From the NCBI GenBank assembly GCA_964016885.1, contig OZ024757.1, positions 6,324,001 through 6,388,000 of the forward strand: DNA of 64,000 nucleotides, in the 5' to 3' direction. The notes beneath the pieces were generated by a model that was not told the origin of the DNA, made no database searches, and was given only the letters and a program-made list of their open reading frames with translations. The DNA comes from Eledone cirrhosa. Taxonomy: Eukaryota. Made by a program: the position numbers and the translations under genes. Shown here piece after piece: positions 53,653 through 53,689 of this stretch. Within the stretch, counting starts at the first letter, position 1, and each line of letters begins with the position of its first letter.

Positions 53653-53689
53653 TTTTACCGGTTGCGCATTTCTAAATGCTTTTCAAAAA
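53653..53689 (-). ncRNA. Atypical hammerhead-like motif in the pLTR (mirror copy 59339-59375 +; related copy 7919-7954 +)
   Basis: TTT-TTGAAAA-GCATT taga AATGC-GCAA-CCGG-TA-AAA. Confidence 0.55.

Follow-up and report, generated by a model that had tools for sequence, protein, structure and literature searches.

Does a hammerhead with an altered core still cut when it is carried by thousands of copies of a recently active retroelement? The question is raised by positions 53653 to 53689 of the window (the whole stretch of Eledone cirrhosa DNA analysed, 64 kb), where the initial annotation described the layout of a minimal type I hammerhead of Penelope-like elements, with UUGAAAA in the place of CUGANGA and GCAA in the place of GAAA. 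Read on the minus strand from 53689 to 53653, the motif is UUU / UUGAAAA / GCAUU-UAGA-AAUGC / GCAA / CCGGU / A / AAA, and its stems, boxes, palindrome and GUA triplet are all as described. Its parts are as follows.

53653..53689, minus strand: hammerhead-like motif of the young subfamily A
53689-53687 with 53655-53653, minus strand: stem I, three U-A pairs
53686-53680, minus strand: box 1 (UUGAAAA, 7 nt), U3 to A9
53679-53675 with 53670-53666, minus strand: stem II, five pairs, GCAUU/AAUGC
53665 (G12), 53664 (C13) and 53663 (A14), minus strand: box 2, GCAA
53662-53657, minus strand: palindrome ACCGGU, with a GUA triplet of the NUH type
between 53656 and 53655, minus strand: predicted cut, 3' of GUA
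53683..53698, minus strand: predicted 6-bp hairpin UCAAAA/UUUUGA of the minimum-energy fold, in which U3-A6 and stem I's 5' strand would be tied up

The motif pattern matches three times in the window (7922, 53686 and 59342) and never in 100 shuffles. The two other copies, together with the hammerhead of a sister family, here called S, are located as follows.

7878..8108, plus strand: solo pseudo-LTR of the older subfamily B, in (TA)n, beginning at the CAGAT zone; motif at 7919-7954
59339-59375, plus strand: third motif, in an inverted arm and antisense to the ORFs, missing from the initial annotation
46961..46996, plus strand: hammerhead of family S in a solo pseudo-LTR, with the same U3-A8 box and a normal GAAA

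The motif at 7919-7954 differs from that at 53653-53689 by just a single U in the loop of stem II, and the solo pseudo-LTR that holds it is 88% identical over 242 nt to the pseudo-LTR of the element at 53653-53689. Elsewhere on the plus strand, 21711-21751 is a canonical minimal hammerhead-like motif of another repeat (CUGAUGA, short stem II, GAAA, CG palindrome and 4-bp stem I), and 16771-16817 has CUGAUGA and GAAA boxes flanking a long stem II but a G at the cut position, and is probably a decayed hammerhead.

The fold gave z-scores of 0.23 (37-mer) and -0.99 (upstream hairpin included), neither of them significant. Since the fold alone is no better than that of shuffles, the case for a hammerhead rests on homology. 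A search of 52500-60500 against Rfam at E<=10 returned no hammerhead family, only microsatellite-driven matches, so Rfam does miss the motif, in line with the suggestion that standard searches would. The homology comes from S, a Penelope-like element with both ORFs, an ORF2 55% identical to that of the motif's host and nearly saturated fourfold sites. Its motif is laid out alike and keeps a normal GAAA, which supports the proposed kinship to the minimal type I hammerhead of Penelope-like elements; like the motif at 53653-53689, it has nothing inserted between A9 and G10.1. Two stem positions differ in a compensatory manner, stem I pair 3 (U-A in A/B, C-G in S) and stem II pair 4 (U-A in A/B, G-C in S). 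In an alignment of seven mutually related rows, 82% of the cells in the stems are paired, against 35-45% when the stems are slid by -3 to +1 and 71% at +2; with related rows of this number, counts from shuffling do not amount to probabilities. Judged by sequence, the 53653-53689 motif is a hammerhead homologue.

Compared with the minimal type I Penelope hammerheads described in PMC4209133, the motif is alike in its pseudo-LTR position, short stem I, G10.1-C11.1 pair (which closes stem II at 53653-53689), palindrome replacing stem III and NUH triplet, and unlike in its GCAA, its stem I of three A-U pairs and the hairpin that covers its core. The lack of an extra base between A9 and G10.1 is shared with the Marsupenaeus and Saccoglossus(2) rows of that work. 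In the rows of its supplement alignment compared here, box 2 is GAAA throughout (PMC4209133), and because box 2 is GCAA here, we file the motif as a variant homologue and not as a consensus member.

The host of the motif is an intact Penelope-like element with reverse transcriptase (RT) and GIY-YIG, and the motif lies in its 3' pseudo-LTR. The features of this copy are as follows.

54687..57041, minus strand: ORF2, 784 aa from stop to stop, with RT, linker and C-terminal GIY-YIG (RVT_1 E=4e-7, GIY-YIG E=2e-6)
56972..58282, minus strand: ORF1, about 436 aa from the first ATG, overlapping the start of ORF2
53485..54686, minus strand: 3' UTR and 3' pseudo-LTR; box 1 starts 1,001 nt past the ORF2 stop
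53485..53525, minus strand: optional 40-nt tail between preferred 3' ends, then (TA)n
53720..53735, minus strand: CAGAT zone, in which 5' ends of family copies accumulate 34-49 nt upstream of box 1; putative RNA start
58303..58399, minus strand: upstream pseudo-LTR, 5'-truncated and without the motif, 99% identical to 53485-53580
58396..59539, plus strand: inverted copy of the element 3' end, holding the motif at 59339-59375

Since the upstream pseudo-LTR lacks the motif, this copy has just one sense-strand motif. The insertion has 1.1-kb inverted arms on both flanks and a (TA)n end. In a tandem copy elsewhere in the genome, 4,726 nt separate the two sense motifs, and the ORF1 ATG follows box 1 by 223 nt. 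The pseudo-LTR, tandem or inverted insertion and optional 30-40 nt tail are thus all present, as in Penelope-like elements. The family is young: a 201-aa RT piece had 17,683 candidate matches, of which the best 150 show 99-100% identity, many of them with the full 784-aa frame. In the 3' UTR upstream of the motif, 53795-53988 holds two 83-nt direct repeats that are 87% alike and apparently differently arranged in subfamily B.

ORF1 (56972-58282) has no Pfam match and is also found in S (60% over 118 aa); its C-terminal half is of low complexity (H, N, Q, R, T, P). Where canonical Penelope elements carry an endonuclease, they have a single ORF. ORF2 shows the RT signatures DKG, GTAMG and YLDD, a linker C-x4-C-x2-C at residues 653-661 that fits the CX2-5CxxC of Neptune and Nematis (PMC8557442), and a GIY-YIG domain at residues 691-780 of 784, which is C-terminal and not N-terminal as in Naiad and Chlamys. 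By description, the element is like Neptune and Nematis (Craig 2021, PMC8557442) in that its GIY-YIG is C-terminal, its linker fits CX2-5CxxC, its targets are microsatellites and it has an inverted 5' copy and a tail, and unlike them in its separate upstream ORF of about 436 aa. A non-LTR retrozyme, which is described as short non-coding tandem repeats with a type I hammerhead in each (bioRxiv 10.64898/2026.07.22.740005), does not fit, for the motif sits in solo pseudo-LTRs and in the element they come from, which is coding and about 4.7 kb long. Elsewhere in the window, minus-strand C2H2 zinc-finger arrays (25611-26144, 32645-33759 and 42891-44249) sit among RTE-like RT fragments (22381-23058, 37438-38214 and 45051-46190) and many satellites.

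We searched the 3.0-Gb genome with a loose motif pattern, using the reversed pattern as control. The GCAA version gave 12,601 matches against 17 in the control, and by eye the first 100 listed comprised 50 of subfamily A, 45 of B or B' and 5 of other repeats. The GAAA version gave 23,525 matches against 64, mostly S but with other families included. C13 is fixed in all three subfamilies, of which B' is an older one with a sister-type loop. A pattern for position-13 variants with a gap of 3-4 nt, which covers subfamily B only and not A, found 86 B-type copies without C (46 U, 25 A and 15 G, by eye). This share of about 1.5% matches mutation after insertion, B copies being 96% identical to the B majority sequence. 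For subfamily A, 26 GCAA rows and no GAAA row were listed in the first 24 Mb of one contig, and no other letter reached 5% at position 53664 among 2,554 contigs of one sequence run of unrecorded kind.

Several apparent matches were set aside. A second GCAA family proved to be an old MITE-like repeat with terminal inverted repeats, a different 3' side and no stems, that is, a chance match, and isolated GCAA rows in family F3 were read as single mutants of a GAAA family. C3-G8 cores joined to an ACCGGU palindrome were no commoner than in the control (191 against 237), and at least 120 viral-contig loci with a C3-G8 and GCAA core included none with both stems among the matches listed. Among ACCGGU-palindrome cores genome-wide, U3-A8 (about 36,000 matches) has nearly displaced C3-G8 (191).

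The initial annotation took the persistence of both core changes in the solo copy as an argument against random decay. Both changes are indeed kept at 7919-7954, but the copy argues less strongly than claimed, because it is about 10% diverged, so that one site would be expected to stay C in about 9 of 10 cases; the solo pseudo-LTR at 7878..8108 is moreover one of thousands from a related subfamily. A better argument, at the level of sequence, comes from a conserved block. Between the A and B majority sequences, the 36-nt motif has no substitution (and one loop indel), whereas 21 of the 201 flanking columns differ (Fisher p=0.027), and the motif lies inside a substitution-free run of 63 columns (permutation p=0.024); these p values are modest, as they come from two majority sequences and a block picked after being seen. 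In a rough model, the probability of no further core change under neutrality since A13C is 0.015-0.07. The conservation reaches 24 nt upstream of the core, where a TCTCAA word is common to S. We regard continued constraint on the motif block as moderately supported by these comparisons, and it need not be catalytic, because the block includes the hairpin and promoter-proximal DNA.

Families F3 and F5 combine U3-A8 with GAAA. In an RT tree holding no named Neptune or Nematis reference, A and B join F5 (100/100) while S and F3b stand apart, so that C13 is derived. F5 is the closest GAAA family (71% aa), and at three loci its stem I has 1 bp and U-U stands at 10.1-11.1. Erosion of the hammerhead periphery may be a trend in the A/B/F5 clade, and relaxed constraint may predate A13C, because stem I of F5 is already eroded. 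From other organisms we collected 115 related loci in metagenomes and GTDB, 27-47% identical. A strict descriptor with position 13 left free found a hammerhead in 29 of them, giving 28 distinct motifs, all with GAAA and 11 with U3-A8; a looser descriptor on the same loci gave one weak GCAA candidate among 31. GTDB bacterial assemblies contain Penelope-like elements, some with hammerheads, and these are probably carried-over host DNA.

These relatives bear out that A13C is unusual, and no published case was found in the literature searched; we consider it likely to be novel. Luense 2017, which reportedly covers about 150,000 Penelope-associated hammerhead variants, could contain it. U3-A8 is indeed a known compensatory swap, as had been stated. 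It is described in Schistosoma Penelope hammerheads (Cervera and De la Pena 2014, PMC4209133), where the Schistosoma_mansoni(4) row has an identical UUGAAAA box, and it stands among the natural core variants given in Perreault 2011 (U3-A8, A6C, a U13a insertion and U15.1-A16.1, some of low activity; PMC3088659). The text consulted does not name A13C, and the variants it gives are rare single examples, whereas here a family of about 12,000 copies is concerned. The further suggestion that such motifs might explain ribozyme-less lineages found no support. Those lineages, Naiad and Chlamys, have an N-terminal GIY-YIG and are described as screened with relaxed cores (PMC8557442), while our element has a C-terminal endonuclease and relatives with detectable GAAA hammerheads.

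As to what A13C would do, changes of A13 are quoted to cost 10-100-fold, milder than those of C3, G5, G8, G12, A14 and A15.1 (PMC4075628 citing Ruffner 1990), a second-hand figure for the minimal hammerhead that is not specific to C. Box 1 changes are reported as all of low activity except a C-G swap (PMC9901934, whose text gives no A13 value), and A13 is altered in 2 of 198 cricket satellite sequences (PMC2837043). The string 'A13' is absent from the text of PMC2553840, PMC11300833, PMC12192606 and PMC6155905. The catalytic groups are G12 and the 2'-OH of G8 (PMC11300833); since G12 (general base) and the sugar of position 8 (general acid) are kept, cleavage chemistry would still be possible.

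The initial annotation also proposed that upstream sequence pairs with the core as a possible switch. The UCAAAA/UUUUGA hairpin is predicted, with pairing probabilities of 0.97-0.99 at U3-G5 in subfamilies A, B and B'; its role as a switch fared less well, as the pairs of the hairpin do not covary and S lacks it. In folding, it outcompetes stem I, whose three A-U pairs (one of them covarying with S) compare with four pairs, two of them G-C, in S. Cofolding, in which the ACCGGU palindrome pairs between copies, gave a double-hammerhead pattern as the minimum-energy dimer of S (-22.5 kcal/mol), while the A dimer preferred another fold (-17.9 kcal/mol, against -13.0 for the hammerhead-like dimer) and the double hammerhead was also not the best fold for B. 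In this model S is the best candidate for an active hammerhead dimer. For F5 and F3 copies, too, the model gives a poor hammerhead fold, so folding alone fails to single out A/B. The three-pair A-U stem I and the predicted core-hiding hairpin occur in the A13C lineage, so cutting is likely to be weak or conditional. Two other candidate features were set aside as showing no covariation, namely a pseudoknot of loop II and a 5' splice site at GGU/AAA.

The ends of genomic copies bear on whether templates were cut. Their 5' ends lie in the CAGAT zone in 15 of 38 A windows and 20 of 54 B windows (copies sampled by motif, both inverted arms counted), and their 3' ends lie at +162 or +202 from box 1. 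Of the 5' ends flanked by (TA)n, counted on the reverse strand and once per place, the upstream zone has 1,844 for A, B and S combined, and the stretch across the motif has 56 (A/B) and 90 (S). Because 5' ends pile up upstream of the motif, templates appear to be mostly uncut in both families. By eye, among the first 100 rows, near-cut 5' ends make up 10 of the 22 listed A/B places and 17 of the 35 listed S places, and relative to the upstream zone they amount to about 4% with C13 against about 3.5% with A13. With shares this alike, neither a loss of cutting through A13C nor any clear cutting can be read from the genome. In subfamily A, a downstream non-cut repeat unit takes 10 of 34 junctions against 9 of 34 at the cut site, and 3' ends at the cut are very rare (43 overlapping matches at about 26 places, few of them at the cut). 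Many inverted pairs, arranged head to head with their motif starts 110 nt apart, have their fold-back point some 40 nt upstream of the motif, at the CAGAT word that family S shares.

The anole Poseidon element PAc (Frangieh 2024, PMC11167929) offers a parallel. It is alike in having a hammerhead near the RNA 5' end, an uncut main template and two internal RT start sites bounding a 30-40 nt tail, and unlike in retaining C3 and G8 and in having a motif that overlaps the start of the ORF, whereas here the core is altered and box 1 lies ahead of an extra ORF1. This vertebrate hammerhead is reported to cut only with added protein, and knocking it out leaves in vitro insertion unaffected (PMC11167929).

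From these sequence comparisons, we give about an even chance to the reading that the motif descends from the element's dimer-type hammerhead and is now likely throttled. A13C would then likely turn cutting down rather than make a new enzyme. RNA would start about 44 nt upstream, and most transcripts would stay uncut owing to A13C, the three A-U pairs of stem I and the hairpin predicted upstream, with the uncut RNA serving as template and reverse transcription starting 162 or 202 nt downstream of box 1. Rare cuts after GUA would occur only when two copies pair through ACCGGU, likely assisted by the element's own protein, and such residual cutting may keep the block conserved.

Appreciable but lower probability goes to a motif that no longer cuts, its block being conserved for some end other than catalysis, for instance as a downstream promoter element, as a leader structure to which the element's protein binds or for RNA-RNA pairing through ACCGGU. 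Three damping changes in one lineage would fit this, as would copies that derive from uncut RNA with 3' ends nearly absent at the cut, the normal in vitro insertion reported for hammerhead mutants (PMC11167929), and a conservation that extends 24 nt upstream of the core with TCTCAA shared with S. However, the other core positions, G10.1-C11.1 and H17 are intact as catalysis needs, and A13 is described as one of the more tolerant core sites (PMC4075628).

A more far-reaching proposal, which we consider doubtful, is that U3-A8 with C13 forms a new working core, held off by the hairpin just behind the transcription start until RNA pairing or a protein of the element itself turns it on; the element would thereby choose between a whole template and removal of the 5' leader. 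Its strongest form, a core fully as active as that of S with the hairpin as a switch opened by protein or dimer pairing, is unlikely. The fixation of C13 in three subfamilies, the reported activity of some natural core variants (PMC3088659) and a 5'-end profile near the cut that is alike in A/B and S, each with some excess, would agree with it. Yet that excess could be explained by TA microhomology or polymerase stalling, all 28 related hammerheads and the published alignment rows compared (PMC4209133) keep GAAA, stem I consists of three A-U pairs and the hairpin lacks covariation.

Slightly less probable still is a dead and neutral motif, in which A13C arose shortly before the family burst and decay is still pending. 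The subfamilies are close (fourfold-site distance 0.09-0.13), ribozyme-less Penelope clades are reported to spread well (PMC8557442), and 4 of the 45 listed B/B' copies carry the same G10.1-to-C change on different backgrounds, perhaps as a hotspot or a minor lineage, and this change breaks G10.1-C11.1; against this stand the 63 columns without substitution next to 10% in the flanks and the low probability in the rough model. Mere chance in A/U-rich DNA, for which the flat z-scores, the lack of an Rfam hit and a MITE-like repeat fitting the same loose pattern without stems might speak, is refuted by the homologous position and sequence, normal GAAA and compensatory pairs of S, and is most improbable.

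Penelope hammerheads are nearly universal in these elements and yet dispensable for insertion in the one in vitro system. With a recently very active changed-core family and a normal-core sister, S, this one genome offers a natural matched pair. If C13 cuts, more natural cores belong on the list and GAAA-based searches undercount; were the working, switchable core true, descriptors that require GAAA would miss such cores wholesale. If C13 does not cut, a family has reached about 12,000 copies with a hammerhead that is conserved though dead, and a role other than catalysis would be indicated.
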